NCBI GenBank assembly: GCA_002245135.1
Contig: NGBS01000612.1
Location: 58,077 to 78,076, forward strand
Direction of reading: 5' to 3'
Length of the DNA: 20,000 bases
DNA from: Proteromonas lacertae
Lineage: Eukaryota
Shown here: piece after piece, positions 1-20,000 of the stretch
Position numbering within the stretch: the first letter of the stretch is position 1
Layout of the letters: each line of letters opens with the position of its first letter
The notes under the pieces: generated by a model
The model's database searches: none
The model's input: only the letters and a program-made list of their open reading frames with translations
Told to the model about the DNA's origin: nothing
Translations under genes and position numbers: made by a program

Positions 1-3000
1 TGGGTACATAAACTGATTTTATAGCTTCCCAATCCATATTTGCAAGAATAGAATCTTTAACAATACCAGCAGCATGGAAAACACCATTAATAGTTAAATT
101 CTTTTCGTTATTATGTTGTTTAATTGAATTAACACAGTTCTTATCTGCAATATCACCTTTTATACATTCAAATTTATATCCATTACTTTCTAAATCACTA
201 ACAAATGATTTCATTGATTCTGGTAAGCCATTTCTACCTAATAATATGAATGTAATATTCTTAGCTAATGAACAACACCATTTAATTAATTCTTGAGCAA
301 TTTGGCCATATCCACCTGTTAATAAATAACAGCCATTATCTTTAACACTTTGTCTTTCCTTTCTTTGATTCTTATTACTTTCTCTTGTTATAACAATCTT
401 ACCGATGTGTTTACCTGAAGCCATAACTCTGAATGCATCTTTAGCATGATTGAAACAATATGGAACAACGGGTAATGGAGCATAAGTATCATTTCCAACA
501 TTATTAGCTATTGAATTTAATAAAGAATTACCTAAATTATGATCATTTTCAAACACATCTAATAAATCAAAGTGATAATATTTCACACCTGGTTTATTCT
601 TATTTACATCTTCTTCTGTCCAAATTCCAGTTTTACCAATTTCAACAAATGTACCAGTATTCTTAATAATAGAGAATGATTTGGGTATGAAATCTTTTGC
701 TAATGAGTTTAATACAAAATCAACACCTTCTGGAGCAATTTTTGGTATTTCATCTGCAAATGATAATGTTCTTGAATCATATATATGATTTACACCTATT
801 GATTGTAAGAATGAATGTTTTCCAACACTTGCAGTACCAAATATCTCACATCCAAGTGATTTAGCAATTTGTACAGCACAGAATCCAACACCACCTGCAG
901 CAGCATGAATTAATACTTTATCACCTGCTTTACAATGACCTAAATTCACTAATGAATAATAAGCAGTAGCATAAACAACAGGTAAAGCAGCACCATCAAT
1001 ACATTTAACACTTTCAGGTATAACAGCTACTGAATAAACTGGAACACAAACATATCTTGAGAATGAATATTTACCAATGCCAAATACTTTATCACCAATA
1101 TGAACATTTTGTACATTTGAACCTGTATTTACTACATAACCGCTGAATTCTAAACCAAGTGGACCAGCATCACCAGGATATGTTCCTAATACGTTTAATA
1201 CATCTCTAAAGTTCAAACCAGAAGCGAATACTTCTACTTCAATTTCATCAGGTTGTGGCAGTTTTCTATCAACAACTTCTGTAATAATATTCTCAAATGT
1301 TCCTTTATTAATTACATTCAATCGATCATTAACTGTTGATTCTTCTTGTAATGGTAAAGATTTAATCACTGGTACAAATCTTGAACCATAATGAAGTGCG
1401 ACTTCTGAATCATCATTAGAATTACATAATTCATTGAATAACCACTGTGATTCTAATTGATAACTCATTGGAGAACTACCACCATTAATATCAATTAATG
1501 TACATTTCATTGAAGAATATTCGGTTTTAATACATCTACCAAAACCCCATAATGTTGATTCATTGGAATTAATTGATAATTCATATCCAATTTGTTGTGT
1601 TTTTCTTGTAACAATTGCTAATCTTCCTTTGAAATTATTGGATATTGTTTGTACAATGGTTAATAATGATCCTGTACCATTGATATTTTGTATTTCTAAA
1701 TCATTATCATTTTCATTAATATCTAAAGGCCAGGCATAAACAATCAAAGAGTTTGGCTTGACTACTTCTCTTGTTATATCTTCTAATTGTTTTTTATCAT
1801 TTCCAACAACTTTAGAATTTGGTATTTTATCATCATGAGATATGATTATTACTTCAGTTGAATTCTTTTGATATGATTTTACTAATTCTTCAGTAACACC
1901 AGCATGATCAGCATATATAACTACATTAGGATATATTGTCATTGTATTTGATTCACTTTGTTTTTCTACCCATTGTAATGTATTTAACAATGAAGAAGTA
2001 ATTGATGATGATGATGATGTAATTCCTAATAACTTATGAAATATTTCAGTATTTATAACAGAGTACTTTATTTCATTAATATATAATATCAATTCATTCT
2101 TTTCATTATATAAAGTAATACTTGATGTTAAACCTTCATTTGATGATAATTTCTTACAATAACACCACAATCCATTCAATTCAACATTTGAATTATACAC
2201 AACATTATTAACAGATACTGGAACATAGCATTGATTGGATTTTAACAATAGAATAGGTAATTGAATACAAGCATCAAGTACTGATGGATTCAATGATAAA
2301 TAATTATCACTATTACCATTACTCTTATTATCAATATCAGCAACAATTGTATTTTCACCACATAATGCTTTCATCACTTTCTGATATTCATTTCCATATT
2401 GATAACCATTTTCTACAAAGAATTGATATATTTCTGATTGTGAATATACAATTTGTTGACATTGATTTACTGCTTCTTCTTTAGATGATATTGTTGAAAT
2501 ATTAATATCATTATTAGTATAAACACCTTTACAATTCTTTGACCATACTTGATTGTTGATATTATTAGATATTTCAAAGTTCTTATCTTGAGATAATTCT
2601 AATTGTAAAGACCAAGGTTTTACATTTTCAAGTGATGGAATTGGTAAAGCAGATTGTATTTCCATTGATTCTAATTTTGACACATCTGATTTTGATGTTA
2701 ATTTATCACATTCTAAAGCTAATGAAATGAAATAAGCAGCTGGAACAATTGTAACATCATCAATCTGATGATCAGTTATGTAATTGTAAATACTATTACT
2801 TTCAATTGAATATATTGTTCCTTGGAATAGTGATGACGATATTTGTTTAATTCCTTGTGTTTGATAAGTTGTATGACTATATCTATTTGATGTAAACCAA
2901 CATGATTGTGACTGATATGGATAACTTGGAATATGAACTAATGCTAAATGTGAAGCAGTTGTAAACAGATTTCCAATTGATTGAAATATTATGTAAATAT

Positions 3001-6000
3001 AATGTAGAAATAGATTGTGAAATTGAGTATAAATTGGATTTGTTATTGGATAATGATGGTACATAGATAATTGATGGATCATTTAAGATATATTTACTCA
3101 TTCCTATTAATACTGCATTTGGACCACATTCTAAATAAATCTTATTAGAATATAATTTATCACTACATTCTATTGATTGAGTAAATTGAACTGGATTTCG
3201 CAAGTGTTCGACCCAGTAATCAGCGTTACTCATCTCATTTTCTTTTATTAAACTTCCACTTACATTACTGATTATATCTTTTACTGCTTTTCCATATTTA
3301 ATCTCATTTGCCACTTTTCGAAATTCTTCTAAGATTGGATTCATCATTGAACTGTGGAAACCATGACTTACTTCTAATCGCTTATATCCAACCCATCACT
3401 CTTTAGTTCATTCTCAAGTTTTTCAATCTCACTTATTAAACCACTTACTACATTCAGTTTTGGACCATTATAACATCCTATCTCTATACCATTATATTTA
3501 TTTATATATTCTAACACTTTTTCACTTTCCATAAATACACATAACATTCCTCCTTTTCCATGTTCTAAACTACTCATCAATTTACCTCGAACACTTATCA
3601 ACTTCAATCCATCTTCTAAACTCATTATTCCACTTACTACTCCAGCTACATATTCACCTATACTATGACCTAATACACATGAAGCTTCGATTCCAAAACT
3701 TGACCACATCTTATATAAACTATATTCCATACTGAATAAACAGGGTTGAGTGTATTTTGTATCATTCACCAATTCTTTATTTTCTTCATTATATAATACT
3801 TCTAATAGATTTGGAGATAAATATGAGGATAATATTCTATTACATTCATCCATATTTTCTTTGAATATCGGTTGAGATTCATATAATTCTTTACCCATAT
3901 TGAAATATTGAGATCCTTGACCTGTAAACATTACTACAATTTCATATCTTTTTAAATCATCACTACTTTGAACATCACACTTTTTATTGCTAATATAAGC
4001 TTTCAAATTATTAACTAATTCATTGACATCATTGTTACATGGAACAGCAATCTTATTTTGATAATTTGATCTTAATCTATTGCTTGTTTGAGCAATTTCA
4101 GAAACAGAAACTTCTGGGACATTCTCAATAAATTGATTCACCATATCATTTAAGGAATTTTGTGAATGAGCTGATAATGTAAATACCATAGGAGTATTTT
4201 TACTTTCATCTTCAATTGACTTTGGAATATTTGTCTTTGGAGGTTCTTCTAAAATAAGATGTGCATTTGTTCCACTAAAACCAAATGAACTAATAGCTGC
4301 TCTTTTAACTTCATTATACTTTGGCCAAGGTACTAATTTAGAATTAACTACAGCTGGAATTGAATCAAGATGAATCAATGGATTGCATTGATGATAATTC
4401 AAATGAGGAGGAATTTCATTATATTTCATTGCTAATAATACTTTCAATACACCTGCAATACCAGCAGCAGCTTCTAAATGTCCAATATTCGTTTTGACTG
4501 AACCAATATAGAGTGGTTGATCCTTTCTATTTTCATTATAAATATGACTTAAAGCTTCTACTTCTATTGGATCTCCTAATTTTGTACCAGTACCATGAGC
4601 TTCTACATATGCTATTGAAGATGAATCAATATTTGCATTTTGAAGAGCAGATCTAATAACACTCTCCTGCATTGGACCATTTGGAGCAGTTAAACCACTA
4701 CTTCGACCATCTTGATTTACCGCACTTCCACGAATTATTCCCAATATATTATCATTATCTTTCATTGCATCACTTAATCTCTTTAATACAATTATACCAC
4801 ATCCTTCACCTCTTACATAACCATTAGCAGAAGCATCAAATGTTTTACATTTTCCATCAGGAGATAACATTCCTGCTTGTGAAAAGTTGATAGTCATATC
4901 TGGAGCTAACATAAGATTAACACCACCAGCTAAAGCAGCTTCACATTCACCAGATAACAAGCTTTGACAAGCCATATGAATACTTACTAATGATGATGAA
5001 CAAGCAGTATCAACAGAAATAGATGGACCAGTTAAGCCATAAGCATATGATAATCTACCACTTGCAACACAAGCAGAATTACCAGTTCCAAAATGAGAGG
5101 TAATATTATTCAAACCAGCTTCACGAGTTTGTAAGATTTGATAATCATGAGTGAAAATACCAATAAATACACCATATTTACTACCATTTAATGAGAATGG
5201 TTGATAACCTGCATTTTCTAATGCTTCATAAGAAACTTCTAATAATAATCTATGTTGAGGATCCATAATATTTGCTTCTTTCTTTGATATACCAAATAAT
5301 GAATAATCAAATTCATCTACTTTTTCATTCAGAAAACCACCCCATTTTGTATTCATTTTACCATTACCACCATTTTCATCGTAATATTCATTAGAATCCC
5401 ATCTTGATAATGGTACTTCCGTTATACAGTCTTCACCATTCTTTAATACATTCCAGAAATCTTCTAATGATTTTACATTTCCTGGGAAATGACAACCAGC
5501 TCCAATTATAGCAATTGGTTCATTTCTATTAATAGATTTACTATGAGAAATTTGTTTTGGGATTGATTCTGGTTTGACTATATATTGTTCTAATGTATTC
5601 TTCCATAAATAATTACTGACAGCTTCAATTGTTCCATAATCAAATAAGAATGATGATGATAATTCTAATCCAAATTTCTCAGAGAATATCGCAGTTAATT
5701 CTTGACTTAATAAACTATCAACTCCTAAATCTCTAAATCCAACACTTTGTATATTACCATTCTTCTTTTCTTTACCAACAATTGATAAGAATAATTCTTC
5801 CACTTTATCACAAATATATGGAATTCTATTGTTGGAAGAAATTGATTTGATTTTTTCGTATAATTCCATTAACCATGTTGATTTAATATTCATTTCTTCT
5901 TCTTTTTCTTCTTCTTCTCTAGATTCTATTGATTCATTAAGTCTATATGGTTTATTATCAAATGGATAAGTTGGTAATTCAATAAATTCACCTCCTTCAT

Positions 6001-8151
6001 ATATATTTCTCCAATTAATATTCACACCTCTTTGATATAATGTGGAGATAATATTCAAAATACACTCATCATCTGATTTTACGCTTAACACATTTTCAGA
6101 AGAAGATAAACCAAAGTTTAGAATAAGATTACACTCTTGAGTGTTTTTGTATAATATATCGATTTGTTCTGCTTTAATTTCATTTTTGTTACTGACTTTT
6201 GAAATAGCAGAATCAAATGGAATAATAGATAATGATCGAATATCTAAATAAGGATATTTAGGTGTAGAATAGTTAAGTGGAGTTGAATGATATAAGTAAT
6301 TAAAAGCATCTTGAATAGTTATAATATCAGAAATACAACCAGCAGATAATATACCAACTCCATTTCCACCTACACACACAGGTTCAATACCAACTGATAA
6401 AAATAATTTTGATAATGAATACTGAATAGATAAAACCAAAGATTGATATGTAATATCATCACCTGGGTTTTGAATGTGATCATATAATGATTTTGATGTT
6501 AATTGTTGAAATATTAGCATTGCATTCATCAAACGACTTCTTAAAATTGGAGTATTTACATAGATCAGTTGTTTTCTGAATGTCGAAACAGTAATCAAAG
6601 AAAAATCCATAATGTGTTGGTAATACTACTACTACATCTTGTTGTTTATCAGTCTCATTCTTCCATTTATCTAATTGAGAGAGTAATTCATCAATTGAAT
6701 TAACATTGAAACTAATTCTTGAAGTACATTCATATCTTCCTGTATTAATAGCTTTAGCAAGATTATATATTTCAATTGAATTCTTTTTTTCTTCTACAAC
6801 AGTATGTAATTGATCAACAACTTCATTCAAATGTTGTTTAGTTGGTGATGATAATGTTATTAAACAGGATGAATAAGAAGGAATAGATTTGGTTGGTTTA
6901 TTATATTCTTTTAATATCACAGATACATTATTACCACTCATACCAAATCCATTTACTAAAGCATAACGAATATTATTATTATTATTGTCCCAATTACATA
7001 TTTGTTTTGGTATAACAATGACCTTTTCCTTCATCATAACCTAACTCTGGATTAATAGTATTTAAATTCACAGTACCTGGAATTTGTTTATTATGTAATG
7101 CTAATATAGTTTTAATTACACCTGCAATACCAGCAGCAGCTTCTAAATGTCCAATATTACCTTTAACAGATCCAATCATTAATTTCTCATTATGTTCAGC
7201 AAAAACACTACAAATTGAATTAGCTTCAGTTTTATCACCCACAGATGTCCCAGTTCCATGAGCTTCAACGTAACTAATATCAGTTGATTTAATACCAGCC
7301 ATTTGTAATGCTTTTTTCATCACATCTTGTTGTGCGCTTGTACTTGGTGATGTTAATGTCTCAGAATGACCATCTTGAGTTACAGAACTACTTTCTATTG
7401 TACACCATATATTATCACCATCTCTTTCAGCATCTTCTAAACGTTTTAATATCACAAAACCACATCCTTCACTTCTTACATAACCATTAGCAGATATATC
7501 GAATGGTTTGCATTTTCCATCTGGTGATAACATTCCAGCTTTTGAATATCCAATTGTTTTTTCAGGCGAGAGGATTAAATTGATTCCACCAGTTATTGCC
7601 ATGTTACATTCACTTAATTTTAAACTTTGACAGGCTAAATGCAATGCAGTCATTGAAGAAGATTGAGCTGTATCTATTGACATTGAAGGACCTTCTAAAC
7701 CGAGAAAATATGATATTCTACCAGATGCAACACCAGCAGCATTTCCTGTCCCGAAGAAAGCGCTAGATGCATTTGATTGATTTGCATATTCTGAACCACT
7801 AATTCCCAAAAATACTCCTGTATTACTACCTTGCAATAACGATGGTTGCTGATGTGCATTTTCAAGAGCTTCTACACATGTTTCTAATGCAATTCGTTGT
7901 TGAGGATCCATTAATTGTGCTTCTCTTGGCGCAATTCCAAAAAACTCTGTATCAAATTCATCATAATTAGAGATAAAACCTCCCTGATCTGACACAATTT
8001 TTCTATTCTTAATTAATTCATTCACATCAAATCTAGAATCAGGTACACGAGAGATAGTGCTCTTCGAACTTGCCAGTACATCCCAATAGGAACCAGGATT
8101 ATCCGCTCCTGGAAACCTACACGCAATACCAATGACAGCAATGGATTGCAT
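1..8151 (-). CDS. Modular type I polyketide/fatty-acid synthase, KSQ-AT0-ACP-KS-AT-DH-ER-KR, 3'-truncated by the window, with four apparent single-base frameshifts
   Basis: ATG at 8151 (aaaaATG). KS1: IAVIGIACRFPG, MDPQQR, DTAQSSS, HGTGT, GHLEAAAG. Degenerate AT: GGNGVG at ~6353-6370. ACP: LGVDSL (Ser 5714-5716). KS2: DTACSSS, HGTGT, SSFGFSGTNAH. AT2: GQGSQ, GHSIGE, HGFHS. DH: HQIDDVTIVP (His 2768-2770) and LDACIQ (~2261-2278). ER: LIHAAAGGVG (~885-915). KR: LLTGGYGQIA (~298-327) and HAAGIVKD. ORF pieces join at ~7025, ~6515, ~3393 and ~2958; the DH His and the KR at base 2 are in the same frame. Confidence 0.95.
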
Positions 8152-8720
8152 TTTTAAAATACGTAGAATTATTTTTGATGACGTTTATACATTTTATTAA
8201 TAGTGTGTTGTTGCATTTCTTCTTTTTGCAGCTTAAACCCATCGAGAAACCCATTATTATGATAGAACTGTAATATATTGCTGATACAGGAGCTTTTCAC
8301 ACCATTTTTCAAAATTTTGTAATATAAATCAATCTATTCTTCATTTATAAATTAAGAAAAAACTTCTCTACTCAATGACATGCTGTGGAAGGTATTCAAT
8401 GTGATATATAAAATAATGGCACTACAAAATGAATATGGTTGGAATAAAACTATGACTAAGTTATATTATTTTTTTATACTTAATATAATATGAAATTCGA
8501 TACTAAAGTACAATCTTCAGAAACAAGCGATTTGAGGATGTTATATAACATTTATGACAATTTAGAACATCAGTAATAAACCTAATTCTTTTTTTCTATG
8601 AAATCTCTTCTTCTTTTCTCTTCTAATCACTCTTAAAAGGATTTGGCGCGAAGTAAAGTGATTTAAACACGACTTCGGTTCGACCCTTTCAAGCTTTTTC
8701 TTTTTCAATTTTTTTGAAAA
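8152..8720. promoter_or_regulatory. Divergent intergenic/promoter region between PKS and COG5, with an E2F-type motif
   Basis: Head-to-head start codons at 8151 and 8721. TTTGGCGCG at 8642-8650 matches the TTTSSCGC consensus and stands out from the AT-rich background. Confidence 0.4.
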
Positions 8721-9955
8721 ATGGCTGATATCTTATCAGAAATAAGACAGGACTGTATGTATTCAACATTTATTATTTTTTAGCAACTTTTTCTTCGATT
8801 CTAAGCGATGGTTTCGATGAGACTGAGTTTGCTAGTAGATTTGTTGGAAATAATGCAGCAAAAAATACAGCAGTAACAAATGTGAATAGCTGTATTAAAA
8901 GATTGACTGATCATATTTATTCTGTTGAAAAATCTATTGGAACTATGGTTACTGAGAATCAAACCATTCTCTTGAATACTGTGACTGATACAATAAAATT
9001 TAAACGTGAGATAGAACCATTAATAACAGAACTAACTAATTTAAAAGCAAAAACTTCGCAAATTAAAGGCTTAATCACAAAACCATTGAATGATATGAGA
9101 AATTACGTGTTACAATTAGAGCGTATGCAACTAACAGCCAAAATACTCCGTCGTGTCAAATCAATTCTTGTCTCTCTAAAGAAATTACAAGGAATGGATA
9201 TGAATTCATTAAACGGTAGAGATTTACTAAAAGCTAGTGTAACAATCCATGATATAGAATACTGTCTAAAAGAAGACGATATGAGTGGTATTCCAGTAGT
9301 AGAAAATCAATTACCATATGTTGTTCAATTCTCCAGTCAAATTAGAAAATCAGCAATGGATTCATTTCAATCAGGATTAAGTGAATTAAATAACACCAAT
9401 ATATCAATAGCTATACAAGTATTTTACAATTTGAACTGTCTACCAGCAAGAGTAAATGACGCAATTACATGGTCAGTTCAATCTGTATTAAAATCAATAC
9501 AGCAAGTGATTATATTAAATAATACTAGAAATCCATCACCACAAACATTATGGGATAGAATACAAGAATGGTCTGAAGTATTTCATTCCAGTTGTTTACA
9601 GATGTGGACATTAGAAAGAGTATTATCAAAGAAAAGAGAACCAAACACTAGACAAACCTATGCTGAATTGTTAAAGAAGGAAGGATTAGTAGGAATAACA
9701 GATACTTTCACTTTGTTAGTTGGTAATGCTATTAATAATGAGTTTGTTAGTTGTCCACCTAAATCTTTTGTTTATAATCATTTGGTTAATGAATATAAAC
9801 GATTAGCTGAGATTATTGATAATATATATAATAGATTATCAACTTCAACTAAAACTGTAGGTATGCAACAAGGTATTAGTTCTAAATGGAATAAAGCTAA
9901 CTTTTTGAAAGGTTTTGAAGAATTTGAAATTGCTTTTTCAAGAAATAAATCATAA
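8721..9955 (+). CDS. COG5: Conserved oligomeric Golgi complex subunit 5-like protein (~401 aa); exons 8721-8754 and 8784-9955
   Basis: A 29-nt GT-AG intron (8755-8783) joins MADILSEIRQD in frame to the 8882 ORF. COG5-like segments recognised by eye: FSSILSDGFDETEF, QLERMQLTAKILRR, AIQVFYNL, QMWTLERVLSKKREP, LVNEYKRL. Confidence 0.85.
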
Positions 9956-10288
9956 ATTAATTTATTATTATTGTTTTTTTTTAATTATAGATTGGAAAAT
10001 ATTCGATTAGGTTTGGGAGTATTAGATCTAATATATTTTGTTAAAACATTCTTATTCTTTGCATATTTCGATTTATAAAGTGCATAAACATCTTCACTAT
10101 TTTGCATATTTTAATATCAAATATAACATGAAAGACTATATTTATAGAATTATTCATTCTTTACATTTTTGCAAGAAGTGATGTTTTTGTTTTTGTTTTT
10201 GTTTATTTATTTTATGGAATATAAATAAACTACAAACATATTCGTAATTATAGTATCAAAACTATATATGATTAAAATAGAATTAGGA

Positions 10289-11884
10289 TTAGGAATATAC
10301 ACCTAAACCCATTCTTTTAGATAACTTAGTTTTCTTTTTCTTCTTGTCAGACACTTCATTCACTTCTTCCATCTTTATCATCCCATTTTCTGTATATTGG
10401 GTAATATAATTTGTTAATGTTTTTTTATTTCTTACATATTTAGAGCTTAAAAGTTGAAGAAGTATTTCAATCCCATTCATTTTATATAAAACATCAATAT
10501 CTTCATTTGTATGAGTAAAATATGAATATAATTCCATAATTCGATTATTATTTTCACAAAAATCTCTACAGAATAATACTTGTTTCAAAATCTTTATTTT
10601 ATCCTCAAGAGTAAATTTTTCATATAATCGTATTTTGATTTTCTTTGATAATTTGTATATCACCAGTATTTCTATTGCACTTTTTGTTCTTTTTACTTCT
10701 TCTAATAACATACTTGACAAATCAAGATGAATAATCTGTCTAATGTTACTTTCATCATCATCTATAAGACATAACATAATTATTCAAAAATACAAAAAAT
10801 ATCAATATTATTTCTTCTATACTCTGAATTATTCTTACTTTCATAAATATCTAATTTCAATTCTATTGATGGTTCTTCATTTATTATATCAATTCTATTA
10901 GTTTTTTCTTCTTCATTTTCAGGAGTAAATCCTACATTATCTTCTTCAACAATCTCATCATCTTTCATTAAACTCAATTCTCGAATACCTCTTCGAATTA
11001 TTCGATTAAGAATGTCATTTCCTGTTTTAGGTTCTTCTATTATAAATCATATAATATAAATAATATACCACTATATATTCGATTTTTAATTTCATTTTCA
11101 TTTTTTCTTTTATACATCATATTCAGATCAATCAATTCCATATCATCAGGATTTATATCACCAATGTTGATCTCTTTCCAGTTCAATAATTTCATTGTTT
11201 CATCATATTCATTCTTTTCTTTTGATTGACTTATTTCATTATTTCGTCTCTTTTCATTATGATTCTTATAATGATTTAATATCTTATCCAACAAATATTT
11301 CTCATTTGGAACTAGTAAATTATTAATAGAGATTATGAATTTTAAATCATTAATCAATAGTGATTTTAATATCATTTCATCATTTAAGATTTCACAACAG
11401 TTGATTTGAATGAAATCTTTTAATGACAATTCTATATCATCCATATAGTTCTTTGGAATTAAATATAGCATATTCAGTATATTTATTACTAAATTCTTAC
11501 TCGGATGAGTTTTTATATATCTCAGACAAATATTCATCATTTTTTGTTCATCTAAACAAATACAACACTTTAATAACTCACATACATCCTCTTCATCAAT
11601 TTCTATTGTTCCATATCCATAATAACATGATAATAACAAGAAAGCTCTTTTAGTTATTTGATCAGGAAGTGTAATTTTCGATTCAGCTTTTGGATCTTGA
11701 ATTATTCTTCTTAACCTCTCATTAGAATGACACATGAACAAGGAAATAGATGGAATTTCTTCTTTTTCAGCGATAAAGACTAGATCAGAATATCCATCCT
11801 TTATCATTGTTTCAATTATTCTAATGTGCAACAAAATAAATAATAATCATACCCATATTCTCCACAACCTTTTGTAACCTTCAT
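10289..11884 (-). CDS. BTB/POZ(-BACK-like) domain protein (~499 aa); exons 11884-11853, 11820-11069, 11036-10794, 10761-10289
   Basis: Three 32-nt GT-AG introns (11821-11852, 11037-11068, 10762-10793) splice three ORF-track fragments into one frame (1500 nt). BTB-like motifs: YSDLVF, ITLPDQITKRAFLLLSCYYGYGTIEI, VCELLKCCICL. BACK-like motif: NNLLVPNEKYL. The extreme 3' end is uncertain (possible extra intron ~10262-10300). Confidence 0.75.
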
Positions 11885-12030
11885 ATTTTACTTTCAAATA
11901 TTACATGAAACGACTATATTTTTGTATTTAAGATTATTCATCAGCAAGCTGAGAAAAGAAGGTAACAGTATGATAAATCTACCCATTTTTATTAATCCTT
12001 TATTTATTAAAATTCACACAAAAATATAAA

Positions 12031-13027
12031 CTAAAAGATTAATGTATTTAAAACAATCTCTTTATAGATTTGAAAATAAATTTGAAGTATTACTTTATTT
12101 ATTGGATTATTTTCTATGCCATTTATTAACATTTTAATGTATTTACTCATCTCACACAACAATATCAATGTTCTTTTATATATACAAAAGTATTGATGTA
12201 TGATGTTATTCTCATTTGAAAAGAGAGATAACAATATTGAATTATTCTTATTATCATCAACTATATAATATATATATATACATATATATATACATGCAAA
12301 ATATGTTAAAAGGTAGAAACAATTCTTCTTCAATTCATTAAAATCATTTAATTTTATTATAAAATCTTTCATTTCATTATACTATATATTAACAACATTA
12401 ATAAGAGTAATAATATATACAAATAATGGTAAAGTATCATTTTGATACAATATAGTTAGTGTCTAGTAATGATAATGAATATATATTAGAAATATAGAAA
12501 TACATTTATTAATTCATTAACATTTGATTGAGATAATCTATTATTAGATTCTAGTTTCTGTGGATATTGACATGACAATAATGCTGTTATTTCATCAATT
12601 TGATTTTTATTTTCTATTAACATATTAACAGACATATTAGATTGAAGTGTAGCTAAAACTACTTGTTTAGATTTTAAATATTCCTTTTGATTTATTCTAC
12701 ATTGAATATTATTCTATGCATTTCATAATTTTAAATCATAATACAATTATTTCTGGATTTATTGGATATATTGGGGGAATATTTAACTGTTTTCTTAAAT
12801 TTTTATCTTGAACATTTGGAAATCCGCATATTCTGCAAACATTAAATGAATCAGCAAGTATTACAACAAAAGAATGGCATATATAGCAAGGGAACAAGTT
12901 ATTCTTACATAAAGGACTATATTATAAATAATTAGTTTCAATACCATGAATAGGTTACAATCTGATTAGTTTTATCCTCTATTAATGAATCATTAATCTC
13001 ATTCTCACAAGAAGGACAAATTACCAT
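12031..13027 (-). CDS. Hypothetical protein (~274 aa) with N-terminal double zinc-ribbon-like 4xCxxC region; six exons
   Basis: ATG at 13027. GT-AG introns at 12917-12944, 12714-12744, 12463-12503, 12382-12420 and 12261-12293 give an open 825-nt CDS beginning MVICPSCENEINDSLIEDKTNQIVTYSCPLCKNNLFPCYICHSFVVILADSFNVCRICGFP. It joins the 12031..12372 ORF in frame. Confidence 0.7.
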
Positions 13028-13119
13028 ACTGACTTATGTAATGTCATAGTTACCAAAAAACAAAAAATATAAAAATTACATCATTTCCACTGATTTATTT
13101 TTTATTAATTAGTTATATT

Positions 13120-14246
13120 TTAAATCCATGCAGGACGATGACCATATTCTTTATGTTGAATAAGTCTTCCATACATAATACTCATTTGTTCAAGGAATAC
13201 AAATGTAAGAATTGTATGTGGACCAACTCTGAGAAAATAAGGCATAAAACCTTTCCAAAATCCTAATACACCTTCATTCTTGAGTAAAGTAACAGCACAA
13301 TCAATTGGTCCTTTATATTGTCCTGGTTTCATTGTCTGTAAACGTGTCTTAACAGTATCAAGTGGTAATGACACAGCTGATGATATAAAACCAGCTGAAA
13401 GTGAAGCCATACCGTGTAAAAGTAAACAATCACTATTAATTGATTAATAATAATATATATATATATATATATATATTATATTATATTATATACTGTTTGA
13501 ATAATCGTAATTTCTTCCAAAAGAATTGTTTTGATTGACTATACATACCTAATTGTGCAGCATTGTGAACCATCGAACGTACAACTGTGGAACTTAAACC
13601 AGCAAATAATGTCTTGAATCCTTCTTCACGAATTATACGGACTAAAGCAGATATAGCATTTTTATAGTTTCTTCTTTGTTCTGGTGGTAAACGACCATCA
13701 GCAGACATACGAATTAACACCACTTCTCCTGGATTACCAACAAATGCACCTACTGCACCTGCAACTGTACCAACTGTTAATCGATCAAATATATTCATAT
13801 GTTTACCTTTAGCATTCTTCCTTTCTCTTTGTACTGCATATAAACTGTTGTATCTATACAAATGCATATAAATAGAATCATATATACACTCCCAATCGGG
13901 TTGTGGCATAAAGAATTTGTCTTAAAATACCACCGGTAAGACTATATATTAAAATTATATTCATTATAAAAAATACCCTCGATATAATCCTTGTCTACCT
14001 TCTTCCTTTGCGATCTTAGATAGTAGCTGAAACGAGCCTATTTTCTTGTTTCCTTTACCTCCCTCATTTCTATTTTATATCATTAAGATAAATTATACAT
14101 CAATTGCATACGAGTTTTGCAAAGATCAAGAGGATGGACAATCAAAGTTGCCATACATCCAGCAAGTCCACCAAATATAAACTTTGTCTATAACAAAATT
14201 AAAAAAGCAATAATACCCAGGTCGGGGTTTCAGAAACAGAAGACAT
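13120..14246 (-). CDS. Mitochondrial carrier family protein, 2-oxoglutarate/malate or dicarboxylate carrier-like (SLC25A11-type, ~312 aa); six exons
   Basis: Introns at 14188-14216, 14070-14098, 13942-13976, 13854-13887 and 13433-13493 give a 939-nt CDS. Three carrier repeats: PLDLCKTRMQ, PGEVVLIRM, PLDTVKTRLQ. OGC-type motifs: FIFGGLAG, LRQILYATTRLG, ADGRLPPEQRRNYKN, FWKGFMPYFLRVGPHTILTFVFLEQM. Confidence 0.93.
13454..13475. repeat. (AT)n microsatellite inside carrier intron 5
   Basis: Perfect TA run that enlarges this intron to 61 nt versus 29-35 nt for the other four. Similar TA runs at ~12268-12292 (intronic) and ~19781-19795. Confidence 0.8.
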
Positions 14247-14350
14247 CGTCAAAGAATGATTAAGATTTGTTGTTTAGGCTCGTTTAGTTTGAGTGTGTTT
14301 ATTTCTATTTGTAAAGTTTGTAGAGATTTAAGTTTCGTATTTCTATATAT

Positions 14351-14730
14351 GTATAACCGTAAGAATATCACTGTATGTGGGTAAACCGTACCAGACTATT
14401 CTTAGGTGCCTTCTACAGATAAGAATAAGCGATTTGAGTGTGAATTAGTTTTTGGTACGGGTTATACTGGAGCAAGTGGTGAATTTAAAATTGTGTATAT
14501 ATTTTAGTGTGTGAATAAATTTATGGGTTAAAATTTATTTTTATGTTTTTAATAGTTTTTAGCGTAGGATAGTAGAAATAATGTGTATAAATAGAAAGGT
14601 AGCTACCTGTTCTACCCCGGCAGGGTAGCTACTTTATATAATAAGAAATGTATTTCTATGTAAGTAAGTAGCGTGTCCTGTGTAGCCTAGCTAGGACTTA
14701 GTGATTAAATAGTGTGGTGGCCAAGCTACA
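14351..14730. other. Cluster of imperfect inverted repeats and palindromes at the host/virus boundary
   Basis: ccgtacca (14386-14393) pairs with tggtacgg (14453-14460), enclosing tattctta/taagaata (14397-14404/14420-14427). The palindrome gtagctac occurs twice (14599-14606, 14625-14632) as hairpin arms. The 10-bp palindrome cctagctagg is at 14686-14695. Confidence 0.6.
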
Positions 14731-14987
14731 GAATACGTTCTTACTTTTTTTGGTTATTTTTTTTCATTTATCAAATTAATAATGGATTTATATAGTGTAG
14801 TTAAAAACATTCAAAAGAATTTAAATAGTATCAAAAATATATATTTAAAGAATTATCTGCAGTATTCTATATTTTTTAATAAATCGAAATTCTGACGAGA
14901 AACTGTTGTTATAAACAGAAAAAAGAAACAGTTTTGATTTTCCTGGCATTTTTGAAAAAACCGTTTTTTATCAAAAAAATATAAAAT

Positions 14988-15467
14988 ATGTGTGCTTCAG
15001 TAAACTTTGCTTTCTTTTGTTCATTTAGAAATAATGAAGATTATTTAGATAAGTGTATATGTGGAACATGTAAGTTTTACTTATATTTTAACCATAATAT
15101 AAGTGCAGTTTTAGATAGTCCATTACCTAAGGAAGAGATAAAGTCTTATAATGAATTCTGTGCTATTTGTCATCAAAAGATGTGGACAAAGTACAGTGAT
15201 AAGAGATATTACATGATGCTTTTCGATATTAAACCATCAGTAAAACCAAGAGGATTAAATAGACATTATTTTGCAGTGTTTGATAAGTATATTGAATGGT
15301 TAACACTACCTGAAGGAATGGGAAGTGTTCATTTGAAGAAGAATCCTATGTTGAAACATTATGTAAAGAAGAATTATATATTTGATGATAGTGATGATGA
15401 TGAGGAAGAAGAAGCACAAGAAGAAGTTAAAGGAAACAATGATCAAACTACGATAAACATACTCTAA
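14988..15467 (+). CDS. Cys-rich hypothetical protein with acidic C-terminal tail (possibly viral)
   Basis: 159-aa ORF with CICGTC, CAICH and DDSDDDEEEE. The ataaaatATG start context is shared with the capsid gene. Possible in-frame 39-nt intron at 15070-15108 (GTAAGT...CAG). Confidence 0.55.
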   Translation: MCASVNFAFFCSFRNNEDYLDKCICGTCKFYLYFNHNISAVLDSPLPKEEIKSYNEFCAICHQKMWTKYSDKRYYMMLFDIKPSVKPRGLNRHYFAVFDKYIEWLTLPEGMGSVHLKKNPMLKHYVKKNYIFDDSDDDEEEEAQEEVKGNNDQTTINIL

Positions 15468-15602
15468 ATTTTAAAACGAATCTTTATCTTAAAATGATTT
15501 GGGACAGGGTTTAAAAATATGCGTAATTTAATAAAAATCATATAATATAATAAAAATATAATAAATTTTATAATAAACATAATAAAATAATCATAATAAA
15601 GA

Positions 15603-16433
15603 TTAAAATGGTTCTGTAACACCTGTATCCATCCACTCTGTTATAATAACTTGAGGTGGGAATGCTTGATATGAATATGCATCAAGACCTTTTCGTTCTA
15701 TATAAAGATTACATTTATTATTATTATTTCTTAATATAGGCCAAAAACATCCATAATCATTAATTGCAGGTTGTGAAGTTTCATTTATTACACCTTGTAT
15801 AGGGAAGTATATTCCATTACTACCATCTACAAAGTATGTTTCTAATAATTTGTTATAATATTGTTGCAATAAATCTTCTTTACCTGGTTCAGCTTTAATA
15901 ACATGATTGTCATCTAGATATAATATAAATCCATAACCATCATCATGATTTTTTAAAACAAGGCCATTGTATATCTTGATTCTCATAAAATGTTCAAACA
16001 TTTGAATTTTTATAGGTACTTTTACAGTAGATTCATATTGATTGATGGAACCATCTTGAAATATATAGAAATTAACTGACCAATATGTATATTCAGTATG
16101 CAATAATTTAGGTGATACAGAATTATTAACTATTGTAGTACTACCTCCAGAGCTATTATTTACAACATTATATATTTCTTGACATTTACCATATATAGTA
16201 TTTGTAGTAGTTTTGATATCATTAACAGGTGTAATAATATTATTTATTTGAGTATCAGTATGATTATTAATAGGTTTAACAATAGTATCAGGATCAGTAG
16301 GTTGTATATTTATTTTGTCAGCTATATCTTTAGCAAGCTTATCTGTATCAATATTTATATCTGAAGTATTTCGTTCCCCAATAAACATTTTTTGAATTAA
16401 TAAACAATAAAATAACAAAATTAATAAAAACAT
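15603..16433 (-). CDS. Hypothetical viral protein, possible fibre/spike or minor virion protein
   Basis: Open frame directly after the ATPase; start either at the TGATG overlap (16433) or at caaaaaATG (16388, MFIGER). N/T/D/I-rich N-terminal half, SSGGS linker, aromatic-rich C-terminal domain. Function inferred from context only. Confidence 0.55.
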   Translation of the reverse strand: MFLLILLFYCLLIQKMFIGERNTSDINIDTDKLAKDIADKINIQPTDPDTIVKPINNHTDTQINNIITPVNDIKTTTNTIYGKCQEIYNVVNNSSGGSTTIVNNSVSPKLLHTEYTYWSVNFYIFQDGSINQYESTVKVPIKIQMFEHFMRIKIYNGLVLKNHDDGYGFILYLDDNHVIKAEPGKEDLLQQYYNKLLETYFVDGSNGIYFPIQGVINETSQPAINDYGCFWPILRNNNNKCNLYIERKGLDAYSYQAFPPQVIITEWMDTGVTEPF

Positions 16434-17193
16434 CAAGAAACTTCAGAATGATCTTCAATCAAAATATTAAAGTTAGCTCTAAACACTTTTTTAACATTAT
16501 CAATATATAAGAAGTTATATTGTGGCTTAGTAACAGCTAAATATAACTCTTTAAATGTTTCATATTCAGGTATCCATATATTCAATGAGTTGTATAAGTC
16601 AAACAAATTTCTATTACTCAATCCATAAAATGTTAAACAATAATCTACTTGTGATCTTGCTGAAGGTACTATATCAGTAATATATTGACTACTAATTATA
16701 ATTTTTGATTTTAAATGTCTATTTTCTTTCATTAATACTGGTATGATATTAGCTGTTTTCAACTCTAAACTAAGATCATCAAATATTATAATATGTTCTG
16801 CATACTCAAAATTATCTTTGTTTGTATCATCAATTGATTTCATTAACTTCTCTACTAAATTATCTCCTGAATAAGGTTCAAATAATGAATCGTTTTCATC
16901 ATAACTAATTTCATTATAATCTAATAACTCTTTAATTGAATCATATATCCTATCTTGTTTAATTGTACCTACGAAAAAATGTACATGTTGTTTTTTCTTA
17001 TATTTTGGATCTATAATATGTCTTAATATATTGTATATCAAAGTAGTTTTCCCACTGTTCTTACGAGCTACAATAAATATATTGCAGAAAGGCTCATTAA
17101 AGTAATCATATCCAGAATTTTCTTAGGATCAAAAGACTCACCACCATCAACAGGTTCAATTTGTATATTATTTATTTTTTCAAATTTAAACAT
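16433..17193 (-). CDS. A32-like (FtsK/HerA superfamily) viral genome-packaging ATPase, one frameshift near 17115
   Basis: Walker A-like NIFIVARKNSGKTT at ~17042-17083, upstream of and in frame with the ORF-track start. Walker B HIIIFDDL. A32-type ENRHLKSKIIISSQY and ARSQVDY. ATG at 17193 (MFKFEKINNIQIEPVDGG) needs one extra base at ~17115 to join. Confidence 0.88.
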
Positions 17194-17263
17194 AGTGTGT
17201 GTATATATTATGTAGTGAGAAATCAAAAAATAAAAATAGAAGTCAATAATAAAGTATTATTAC

Positions 17264-18682
17264 TTATACTACCTTTTCAACACCTCTTGGTCCAATAATC
17301 AATTGTTTACCAGTAATTATGTAGAACTTATGATGAATTGTATATGGATTATGATTAGCATCAAATCGTTGATTTGAGCAATCCAAAGTAATTTTTAAAT
17401 CACTTGCTAAGTCTTTACCAGCTCTTAATTTTAATTCAGTTAATCGATCAGTACTGAAATTTAGAACATCAAAAAATGAATTGGGAAATGATAATGTATT
17501 ACATTTATCAAATATTGTATTTTGAATAATATTTCTCATATATTCCCATGTCTGATATTTTGCAGGATATAAATAATCAGGTGTATAAACGAAATCATTA
17601 ATTTGCCATCTTATTCTATCTTGATCTTGATCAAAAGGAATAGTATCTCTATTATATGCATCATTATAATATGCTCTGTATAATATATATTTAACATAAC
17701 TTCCTATGCTACTATTAATACTGAAGTTATAGTTAAAAGTATTACTACCTGGAATTGGATCTTTAGTGATTTGAACTATATTAAAGTCAGTAAAGTCAAT
17801 AGGATGATGAGTTGAATAATTAATGGTATTAGCATTACATGTTGGATCTTTATTGTAACAAATGTAAAGTCTAGGATTAATAATTTTCATTCCTACATGC
17901 TGTTGCCATGAATTAATCCAAACAGAACCATTGCTATGATGAATCCAATTCATTATAGGAGCAAATGTGAATTGAATATAAATGACTTCACCAAAATAAA
18001 TATCATTCTTCAAAGCTAATATGGTATTATAGAAATCTGCAAAATGAAATCTACAGTATAGTTTTCCATGTAATATATCTTCTGTTGTTCCCATTTCTTC
18101 CCAATAATTCCAAACACCTCCATTTGCATTTAAAGTAGAATTAGAATTACATATAGTTGTTTCAGCTATTTTATTATTTCTAATGCGTAAGCCATCAAAT
18201 AAATATTCATAATAATGATAATCTTTTATATCATAAGGATACTGGTTAGCAATTTGATGAGCTAAATCTCGATATTCATTATAACTACTATCTAAATCAC
18301 ATAGAAGTGTTCCAGTTTTATTGTATACTTTGATAGTTCCAAAATTCATTGAATTCCTTAAATTTATATGATCTAACATTTTACCAGTAGTAGAATCAGT
18401 TACAGGTGTAATAGGTAATTTCCATTGTCCTTTACCTGCATCTGCATGATCTCTTTTTTGACCTGTAGTATAATCTAATTCAAATTCAAAGTAACTTTTA
18501 GATAGATTAACACAATTATCACCAGATATTTCAAATGTAATAGCATCACTGTTTGAATTTAAAGATAAAACAGTCTCATTTCTGCTTTGGTTAGGTGTAA
18601 CTAAAATATGATTGTAGACAGGTATATAAGCTGGCACAATGCTTTCATGTTTTTGTGAATTAGGTACAGCAGTGATTGACAT
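17264..18682 (-). CDS. Putative double-jelly-roll major capsid protein (472 aa)
   Basis: Intact ORF of typical MCP size. N-terminal ITFEISGDNCVNLSKSYFEFEL and C-terminal KQLIIGPRGVEKV resemble PLV/virophage MCP strands. Beta-strand-like composition; located between penton-like and ATPase genes. Confidence 0.75.
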   Translation of the reverse strand: MSITAVPNSQKHESIVPAYIPVYNHILVTPNQSRNETVLSLNSNSDAITFEISGDNCVNLSKSYFEFELDYTTGQKRDHADAGKGQWKLPITPVTDSTTGKMLDHINLRNSMNFGTIKVYNKTGTLLCDLDSSYNEYRDLAHQIANQYPYDIKDYHYYEYLFDGLRIRNNKIAETTICNSNSTLNANGGVWNYWEEMGTTEDILHGKLYCRFHFADFYNTILALKNDIYFGEVIYIQFTFAPIMNWIHHSNGSVWINSWQQHVGMKIINPRLYICYNKDPTCNANTINYSTHHPIDFTDFNIVQITKDPIPGSNTFNYNFSINSSIGSYVKYILYRAYYNDAYNRDTIPFDQDQDRIRWQINDFVYTPDYLYPAKYQTWEYMRNIIQNTIFDKCNTLSFPNSFFDVLNFSTDRLTELKLRAGKDLASDLKITLDCSNQRFDANHNPYTIHHKFYIITGKQLIIGPRGVEKVV

Positions 18683-18736
18683 ATTTTATGTTATTTTTTA
18701 AAAATCAAAAAATGCTTAAAAATAGCAAGAAATTTA

Positions 18737-19709
18737 TTAATACAAAATAATCTCAAAATAAATAGGTAAGTTATTTAAATCAATTGCATAACCATCTTGT
18801 TGAGAGACTGATATATTCATTCGTTGATATTCGTGATATTGCATCTTTTTAGTTGTCCATTCAATTTGTGGATTAGTGAATGTAGTATAATCTGCATTTA
18901 TATCAGTTTACAGGTATATTTGCTAAAACCATTGAATTCTCACCACTATTAACCCAGTCACATCTAATTTGTATGAATGACACCCATAGTAAAGAAGGCT
19001 GATTTGGTAACAAATTAGAATAATAATTAAAATCTTTACTGAAATATGCATCACTTAAATGATTTGCATGATAAATTGATATACTTTTATTTATTTCATC
19101 TAAACCAAATAACTTATATGCTAAGTTAGGGAATTCCATACTAAAATCTGTAAAGTAATATTTTCCGAAATGAGTAATATAATTAAATTGTAACTTTAAT
19201 CTATTTTCTGAAGTTTTTTTCAAATTGAAGTACATCTGTTTGATCATCTACTTTATGAAATGGAAATCTATTTGCAAAATCTTCATCAGGTAATGGTACC
19301 ACTCCATTATCAAATGCATAAAAAGTAAAACTTAAGAGATTTCTAGCAAAATAATCTAATAATTCTTTTCCTGTATATTTTCTTTGAGGTATTTTAATAT
19401 CAATAGTTTTATTATAAGGTCCATTTTGGTTTCAGGGTATGCCCATTTTATTGGATTTGTTTCATCTGGATTAATGCAGCTATAATAAGTAAATTAAAGA
19501 GTATATGATCATTTACTTCATCTTGTACTGTATAAGAAGTTATTTGGAATAATGCAGTAATTAAACTCATATATTTGATATTTTTCAGTTATAGTTGGAG
19601 TATTAATACATCTTGTCCATCTATTTGAAAATTTTGAATCATAGTCTGATGTAGTTAAGAACAATGATCTTCTATTATTTATAACATTATTACTATCTTT
19701 AGGTTGCAT
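18737..19709 (-). pseudogene. Putative minor capsid (penton) gene, broken by about five single-base indels (pseudogene or sequence error)
   Basis: Fragments in successive frames: SLFLTTSDY...CIIPNNF, YTVQDEVNDHILF, IKIPQRKYTGKELL, IQIRCDWVNSGENSMVLANIPV, and NISVSQQDGYAIDLNNLPIYFEIILY* (stop 18737-18739). Frame changes at ~19534, ~19494, ~19425, ~19217 and ~18907. Confidence 0.7.
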
Positions 19710-19793
19710 TTATGATTTATAATTGTTGAGAAATATTAAAATATAATTTTATTTGAATTATTCTTTAATTTATATATCGTTATATATATATAT

Positions 19794-20000
19794 ATGCAAC
19801 CACAACCACAAGTTAACAATTCAAATGATGAGAAGATGAACCAACAGATGATGATTATGAATATGAAGAAGATGAAGATAAGTACCTATTGATATGAACA
19901 GAATAAGACATAGAAGAAGACATAGAAGGAATCAAGTCATACCATTTCAAGATATAAGCGAAGATGATTTGAATAACTATGTGAATCAAGAAGTGAAAAG
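19794..20000 (+). CDS. 5' part of a divergent, apparently frameshifted gene (acidic then Arg-rich), truncated by the window
   Basis: ATG at 19794 (MQPQPQVNNSND), then EDEPTDDDYEYEEDED in a second frame and VPIDMNRIRHRRRHRRNQVIPFQD in a third frame that stays open to base 20000. Confidence 0.4.

Follow-up and report, generated by a model that had tools for sequence, protein, structure and literature searches.

Polinton-like viruses (PLVs) and virophages build their shells from a major capsid protein (MCP), which makes up the facets, and a penton protein, which occupies the vertices together with a fibre, and an ATPase packages the DNA. PLVs, unclassified within the Polisuviricotina, are elements of 14-40 kb that encode a replicase and an integrase and often carry terminal inverted repeats; virophages (Virophaviricetes) have a maturation cysteine protease and depend on a giant virus, and Mavericks and adintoviruses (Polintoviricetes) combine pPolB with an rve integrase. 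The core of the PLVs has been set out as an MCP together with a minor capsid protein (mCP) plus an ATPase (Bellas and Sommaruga 2021, PMC7805220), and Barth et al. (10.64898/2026.10.13.758929) report a mosaic pairing of morphogenesis modules with replication modules. A module of double jelly-roll MCP, penton and A32-like ATPase is also found in mavirus and the endogenous virophages and in the Mavericks and adintoviruses. Here we examine the right-hand part of the 20,000-nucleotide stretch of DNA presented above (the window), which is AT-rich eukaryotic contig sequence with a GC content of 27.5%. It very probably carries the virion-building module of a PLV that likely resides, as an integrated element, in the nuclear DNA of a Proteromonas-like host and likely belongs to a capsid cluster already catalogued in Proteromonas lacertae. 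This reading is carried by the predicted fold of the MCP, the family of the ATPase, the full-length homology of the penton gene, the order of the genes and a distinct clade in both the MCP and the ATPase trees; the identity of the host, the integration, the role of the fibre and the production of virions are what we infer beyond these observations.

The P. lacertae cluster is known from the supplementary tables of Bellas et al. 2023 (PMC10120064), a survey in which 1352 genomes were screened; membership of the cluster is understood here as an MCP identity of at least 23% at an E value of 1e-12 to a member. Table S3 of that survey opens with a 450-amino-acid (aa) P. lacertae MCP that was confirmed by a fold match to PBCV-1, and Table S4 assigns 285 matches to P. 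lacertae, which make up the whole of one unnamed cluster (total 285); its members are found at depths of 100-165 kb within long contigs of P. lacertae. The survey gives MCPs only and Proteromonas is absent from its main text, so far as its accessible parts extend; in the same body of literature no penton, ATPase or fibre is described for the cluster. A 2026 preprint (10.64898/2026.07.28.741278) refers to PLVs in P. lacertae and was the only paper to contain both "Proteromonas" and "Polinton" in a literature search that took in few subscription papers; a fuller description may exist. The other system of a related host is the Blastocystis MELD virus (Starrett et al. 2021, PMC8502044). Like the locus described here, it represents a midsize dsDNA virus from an opalinatan of the gut, and its virion proteins have diverged too far to be recognized by sequence searches. 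It is defined, in the portions of that paper available, by an adintovirus-like PolB and an integrase, neither of which is present in the window.

The candidate virion genes

Four viral-type genes, all on the minus strand, span positions 15603-19709 according to the list of open reading frames (ORFs) and six-frame translation. They are the penton candidate (19709-18737), the 472-aa MCP ORF (18682-17264), the A32-like ATPase gene (17193-16433) and a 277-aa ORF that is a fibre candidate (16436-15603). The coordinates and shared orientation reported in an earlier, preliminary description hold, as does its view that the genes are apparently intronless: their breaks relative to intact homologues are shifts of only 1-2 nucleotides (nt), and for this reason introns were rejected as the cause. 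The wider proposal of that description, a penton-MCP-A32 ATPase morphogenesis module of a PLV, is borne out by the MCP fold, the Pox_A32 match and the chain of homology leading to the penton. The locus thus has the core features of a PLV: a double jelly-roll MCP, an A32-like ATPase and, by way of the homology chain, a minor capsid protein. Chance can be set aside as the source of these matches, given the E of 1.2e-12 for the MCP structure and ATPase relatives that are up to 92% identical.

The MCP gene is an open frame. At the level of sequence, neither its product nor 46 of its relatives matched a Pfam capsid family (the window protein has no Pfam match of any kind), and the MCP profile returned no PDB sequence at E 10. 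A word search found seven relatives among 1813 candidates, all in Logan assemblies and 39-75% identical, and a profile search of 1.84 billion representatives returned 257 proteins at E <=0.001, 12 of them at E <=1e-30. From an alignment of 133 of the 150 rows listed, short fragments having been excluded, AlphaFold2 produced a model with pLDDT 87.7 and pTM 0.88, which was used instead of the single-sequence model (pLDDT 29.8). When this model was compared with known structures by Foldseek, capsid proteins of PBCV-1 ranked top (E 1.2e-12, TM 0.56), followed by the mavirus and iridovirus MCPs, and the named top matches among predicted viral structures were also capsid proteins. VIA alignment with the best PBCV-1 capsid protein gave Z 22.9 and an rmsd of 4.0 over 351 aligned residues, and all 50 rows shown were double jelly-roll capsid, hexon or scaffold proteins. 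The preliminary description had proposed just such a modelling and fold comparison for this ORF, and the predicted fold is that of a double jelly-roll capsid protein; on the question of fold we regard the matter as settled. No stretch of the 133-row alignment was conserved enough for a pattern scan, and a scan for close MCP relatives found none in viral, metagenome or prokaryote contigs.

The ATPase gene (about 253 codons) was assigned by Pfam to Pox_A32 at E 7.3e-5, which is at the curated cut-off, and its best PDB sequence match is the packaging NTPase B204 (E 0.0018), in agreement with the A32 type first suggested from its motifs. Two of these motifs, ARKNSGKT and IIIFDD, are present as described, but the spacing from RH to IIISSQ is four residues and not two. 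Relatives made up 153 of 521 candidates; among the 120 listed, 14 are 44-92% identical and come from Logan assemblies only, and the rest are 28-43% identical. The first 27 codons lie in a different frame from the remainder, with a single break near 17112, and across this break 232 of 253 residues are identical to those of one relative (P0008). Judged by the list of matches and the gene context, a cellular origin of the ATPase is unlikely. A pattern scan with the ATPase alone found no close relatives in viral, metagenome or prokaryote contigs. The exact sequences of two relatives, P0013 and P0021, occur on 59 and 49 Logan contigs, respectively, so that close relatives recur in many assemblies or in many copies.

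The likely penton gene comprises about 320 codons with about five frameshifts of 1-2 nt and no in-frame stop, and its identification proceeds through a chain of homologies. Of 52 candidates obtained with the 114-aa middle piece of the gene as query, four were intact proteins 315-322 aa long, and in frame-tolerant alignment the gene is 52-59% identical to these over its full length. Five breaks are seen against two of the homologues, near 19572, 19492, 19430, 19220 and 18906; four of the sites recur with all four homologues and the one near 19430 with three of the four, and one homologue required two extra compensating breaks. When a profile of 38 ORFs that flank the MCP in environmental loci (described below) was compared with the ORFs of the window, only the last piece of the penton gene was matched (E 3.6e-7; the next ORF, 0.25), and hhalign joined the close and environmental penton families at 91.8% and E 7.3e-7. 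The environmental profile in turn reached PBCV-1 P1v1 at E 0.0093 and the EhV penton at E 0.55. P1v1 is presumably the PBCV-1 penton. A penton homologue had no match among PDB sequences at E 10, and a pattern scan for close penton relatives in viral, metagenome and prokaryote contigs found none.

The fibre candidate encodes 261 aa when read from the Met codon at 16388, or 277 aa from a TTG codon, in which case the first 19 residues are hydrophobic. A homotrimer model (three copies of the 261-aa form) scored 0.39 as compared with 0.00 for the best control, on a scale with a mark that 21 of 30 same-chain pairs of solved structure attained, as did none of 23 proteins solved as single chains. The trimer runs agreed in at least 52% of contacts at a partner pLDDT of 45-46, which represents low fold confidence. 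The modelled interface covers residues 15-77, in register, where the contacting positions are spaced 3-4 apart and are mainly Ile, Val and Leu, and it fits a parallel coiled-coil stalk followed by a Gly-Ser linker and a C-terminal domain. The role of fibre or spike, which the preliminary description had entered with a question mark, is therefore likely on the strength of a trimeric coiled-coil model, and remains qualified by the low fold confidence and the want of a homologue: none was found in Pfam, the fetched loci or the contig pattern scans, a large protein search not having been made. Exact look-ups of six window proteins in a protein collection also found none.

By analogy with described viruses of this kind, an icosahedral shell would have facets built of MCP trimers, pentamers of the penton would close its vertices and hold the trimeric fibre, and the A32-like ATPase would pump a linear DNA genome into the shell. 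The element would enter a host chromosome by means of its own integrase. This enzyme, and a replicase that would copy the element, would be encoded outside the window, probably beyond position 20000.

Environmental relatives, the P. lacertae cluster and the host

By way of the ATPase alignment we fetched 82 loci (the metagenome share being 80 of at least 95 matches), of which 36 hold homologues of penton, MCP and ATPase. In 18 of these 36 the three genes have the order and orientation seen in the window, which is the commonest arrangement among the fetched environmental PLVs, which are from water and soil. The relatives have PLV-type genomes of 16-21 kb and are distant from the window. Their MCPs, a group without a Pfam family, are homologous to that of the window (profile E down to 1.3e-9), and their pentons and ATPases are 25-46% identical to the window's in the best segment. 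They differ in that an ORF of about 130 aa often lies between MCP and ATPase (in L008, L010 and L013), in the long branch that sets them apart, and in having no relative of the fibre candidate or of a 159-aa ORF that adjoins it in the window. No row in the accessible supplements of PMC10120064 and PMC7805220 contained any of six motifs of this distant group, which was therefore not assigned to a named group of PLVs. Five of the environmental genomes are near-complete: L001 (1-18843), L002 (1-16267), L008 (1-16151), L010 (1-17806) and L013 (1-14837). A scan of 13 ORFs for replication genes found pPolB and an rve integrase in L008, a primase-D5 helicase and rve in L010 and a PIF1-like helicase in L002, and Ulp1-type proteases occur in L001 and L013; one capsid module is thus combined with four different replication modules in these five genomes.

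Quick maximum-likelihood trees, midpoint-rooted and composed of the relatives themselves (named references and cellular ATPases were left out), place the window genes in a clade of their own. In the MCP tree, for which 30 distant proteins and 13 MCPs from the fetched loci were chosen, a branch with 100% SH-aLRT support sets the window MCP and 12 Logan relatives (13 of 56 rows) on one side. In the ATPase tree, from which one fragment was removed and in which distant rows were thinned at 65% identity, the window ATPase and 13 Logan relatives (14 of 81 rows) likewise form one side of a 100% branch. For six MCP/ATPase pairs from Logan, the longest contig of the one is equally long as that of the other (10216, 9425, 8989, 7154, 5898 and 5312), which suggests that the two genes travel together in the close clade.

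The window MCP likely belongs to the catalogued P. lacertae cluster as a divergent subtype, distinct from the representative printed in Table S3, to judge by shared motifs. Three of four motifs taken from it occur once each in the PMC10120064 supplement (4.0 million characters), all in the row of the P. lacertae MCP and in the same order, and by eye its residues 48-69, 316-338 and 356-370 agree with that protein at 14 of 22, 16 of 23 and 9 of 15 positions. Two motif patterns of this type are clade-specific: among 14 close relatives they occur in 11 and 12, as compared with 0 and 2 of 120 distant ones; a third separates poorly (7 of 14 close, 17 of 120 distant). The two proteins are also alike in length (450 and 472 aa), in having been recognized through a fold match to PBCV-1 and in a host GC of about 27%. 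Since the capsid family matches a cluster already catalogued in P. lacertae with its 285 matches, the suggestion that the element might represent an undescribed lineage is not upheld in its strong sense; the element is a new member of a PLV clade that has been catalogued but not described, and it is only modestly new.

The host is probably a Proteromonas-like gut opalinatan stramenopile. In Table 1 of Lind et al. 2025 (PMC12129017) the GC content of P. lacertae is 27.0%, that of tortoise Blastocystis 21.5-23.1% and that of the human subtypes 39-55%, and the introns of the human subtypes are nearly all 30 nt long. The GC content of the window, together with mixed short introns of 29-61 nt, best fits a Proteromonas-like host, and the small-intron, possibly gut-dwelling protist envisaged earlier accords with this.

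Protists commonly harbour endogenous PLVs, and the capsid family in question had already been counted in P. lacertae, so the finding is unsurprising. Its narrower value is that a penton, an ATPase and a candidate fibre are tied to a capsid cluster that had appeared in a supplementary table only, that this cluster is placed, on a long branch, as sister to a group of environmental PLVs, and that profiles are provided for finding DNA viruses in the organisms most closely related to Blastocystis, for which few have been described. Tentatively, and with less confidence than we have in the module itself, one might picture a still-active, family-level PLV clade confined to gut opalinatans. It would comprise several subtypes (their MCP and ATPase relatives being found only in raw-read assemblies), possess a trimeric fibre of its own that has no known relatives, and reach hundreds of copies per host genome. 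Such a clade might consist of autonomous viruses of an anaerobic gut protist or serve as an endogenous defence against a giant virus living in the gut of reptiles or amphibians.

Weighing the alternatives

A number of points weigh against the reading of the locus as an integrated PLV module of the P. lacertae cluster. Within the window, the ORF list and Pfam revealed no integrase, replicase or protease, repeat searches revealed no terminal inverted repeat and no target-site duplication, and there is no step in GC at the presumed junction (28.1% to the left, 25.8% to the right). The link to the Proteromonas cluster is made by motifs and blocks compared by eye and not by a scored alignment, and the fourth MCP motif is absent from the PMC10120064 supplement as far as it was available; the host was assigned by GC and intron sizes and not by a tree of host genes. 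The trimer model of the fibre candidate, with its three copies, lies outside the calibration of the tool, and its fold is uncertain. Direct library support for the penton is weak: Adeno_Penton_B was matched weakly by one of the four homologues (E 0.0024), none of 32 members of the environmental family matched a penton family, the top PDB entry for the close penton alignment is named as an alpha-amylase (E 0.021), and the Atlas recognition of a penton homologue (2021) falls under the mark of 2300.

The alternative that survives best, a serious one though we favour it less, is that the same virus is present as a decaying fossil whose penton and ATPase frameshifts are real, and which would produce no virions or at most be complemented by sister copies. 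Frameshifts number one in the ATPase, about five in the penton and none in the MCP. The break density is 5.1 per kb in the penton and 0.37 per kb in the host genes, a 14-fold difference (p 3.4e-4) that fits true decay of the penton equally well, the host count having been made by eye as a lower bound. Only one of six breaks falls in a run of at least five bases, which fits decay too, and the viral genes have a host-like GC3 (0.11-0.23 vs 0.11-0.22 in host genes) and are depleted in CpG. On the other side, there is no nonsense codon in either penton or ATPase, the MCP, ATPase and fibre genes together show 0.33 breaks per kb, which is the host rate, and the ATPase is 92% identical to an intact relative. 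Moreover, the breaks are concentrated in the last 1.1 kb of the window and extend to the neighbouring ORF that starts at 19794, and the absence of nonsense codons together with the frame changes in that ORF suggests a poorly polished stretch. In the host polyketide synthase (PKS) gene, four frame changes without introns, near 7020, 6520, 3385 and 2950 (by eye), look like assembly errors, from which it follows that the assembly or the locus has errors. Artefactual frameshifts in multi-copy elements, removed by polishing, are also reported in the part of PMC10120064 that deals with them. On balance the frameshifts are somewhat better explained as assembly errors in a multi-copy family than as decay. 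The open MCP frame stands, but the recent integration or retained function that it had been taken to suggest is left unsupported because two of the four genes, ATPase and penton, carry frameshifts.

It is rather improbable that the DNA comes from a low-GC Blastocystis, whether of the reptile type or another, and that the element belongs to the MELD virus which Starrett et al. described from Blastocystis, with its adintovirus-like PolB and integrase and divergent virion genes. Introns near 30 nt would suit such a host, as would a type I PKS, an enzyme also present in Blastocystis ST7 (PMC3129679, in part), a virus of this kind has been described (PMC8502044), and a protein labelled "MELD virus sp." ranks ninth among the Foldseek matches of the MCP (E 1.4e-11). 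That match, however, is only 14% identical, the GC content of the window is closer to that of Proteromonas than to that of any Blastocystis in Table 1 of PMC12129017, and in Table S1 of PMC10120064 ten Blastocystis assemblies appear without an MCP count. One supplement of PMC8502044 has no "Blastocystis" entry, and an egovirus preprint (10.1101/2024.03.23.586382) finds, in the portion available, no gene flux with Blastocystis.

That the join between host and viral DNA is an assembly chimera of a host contig with a free or separately located virus genome is very unlikely. The assembly does contain frameshifts and neither a terminus nor a target-site duplication was seen, but composition is continuous across the join, and the position of the catalogued cluster members deep inside long P. 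lacertae contigs indicates that integration is the rule for this capsid family. Least probable of all is a virophage, Maverick/adintovirus or giant-virus fragment in place of a PLV: although capsids of PBCV-1, faustovirus, iridovirus, mavirus and Sputnik are all matched by the fold, the distant relative L008 carries pPolB and an rve integrase, and the third Atlas rank of the penton homologue is a cluster with Sputnik V18/19 in 26% of its members (0.97, at low recognition), the MCP lacks Pfam and PDB sequence matches, its sequence relatives sit in PLV-type genomes, and in Table S4 of PMC10120064 the matching cluster is listed neither in the columns for virophages nor in that for Maverick-Polinton-Adintovirus. 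By MCP sequence, the element is accordingly assigned neither to the virophages nor to the Mavericks or adintoviruses, from which it also differs in the want of a protease, pPolB or integrase within the window.

The presumed junction and the flanking genes

To the left of the PLV module lies host DNA, in which Pfam identified a type I PKS, COG5, a BTB protein and a mitochondrial carrier. The carrier gene (13120-14246, minus strand; Pfam Mito_carr) is intact, with a spliced product of 312 aa, and, as had been noted, it is rich in introns: five GT-AG introns of 29, 29, 35, 34 and 61 nt interrupt it. From its start at 14246 to the 159-aa ORF at 14988 the distance is 742 bp, in line with the roughly 750 bp given in the preliminary description; that the element starts there is an assumption, no terminus having been found. 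An imperfect palindrome with 12-nt arms that are 92% complementary lies in the host-virus spacer (14596-14635), and we mention as a lead only that it could possibly be a terminal structure marking the end of the element. The DNA fold of 14560-14760, a region picked by eye, has a z of -2.29, with 1 of 200 shuffles equally good; this part of the spacer is G-rich and has a second hairpin besides the palindrome. Positions 14201-15000 contain no tandem AGT/ACT run, and an Rfam scan of 12000-20000 gave no matches at E 1.

The 159-aa ORF (14988-15467, plus strand), which is convergent with the fibre gene, is intronless and Cys-rich with an acidic tail, and may be viral or host. Its zinc-finger Pfam matches are sub-threshold (E 0.072 and 0.22) and its top match in the fetched environmental loci has E 0.081, so that no homologue was found in Pfam or those loci, large protein databases being outside the search. 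It is reminiscent of those accessory proteins in midsize DNA viruses that are acidic and bind zinc. For such proteins the "Oncoids" treated in parts of PMC8502044 may be compared. At the other end of the module, and divergent from the penton gene, an ORF start (19794-20000, plus strand; six-frame translation by eye) encodes an acidic and then Arg-rich sequence that runs past the end of the window; by eye it seems to shift frame twice, and it has no Pfam match.

CpG is depleted in host and viral coding regions alike over 2-19247 (observed/expected 0.15-0.46), and is lowest in the fibre, MCP and penton genes and in one part of the PKS. Just upstream of the carrier gene, a short stretch at 14340-14500 (plus strand) looks like the remains of a disrupted coding sequence and contains two stops. 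In the interval that separates COG5 from the carrier, at 10289-11834 on the minus strand, an intronless-looking BTB/BACK ORF is followed by a downstream 162-aa ORF with a weak Armadillo match, and the two are possibly one gene of an expanded family. The COG5 gene, from 8722 on the plus strand, has a short first intron, and its long ORF stops at 9955, likely with another intron after it. The PKS (2-8151, minus strand) is a multi-module type I enzyme with two KS domains as well as AT, ACP and reductase-like parts, encoded without introns.

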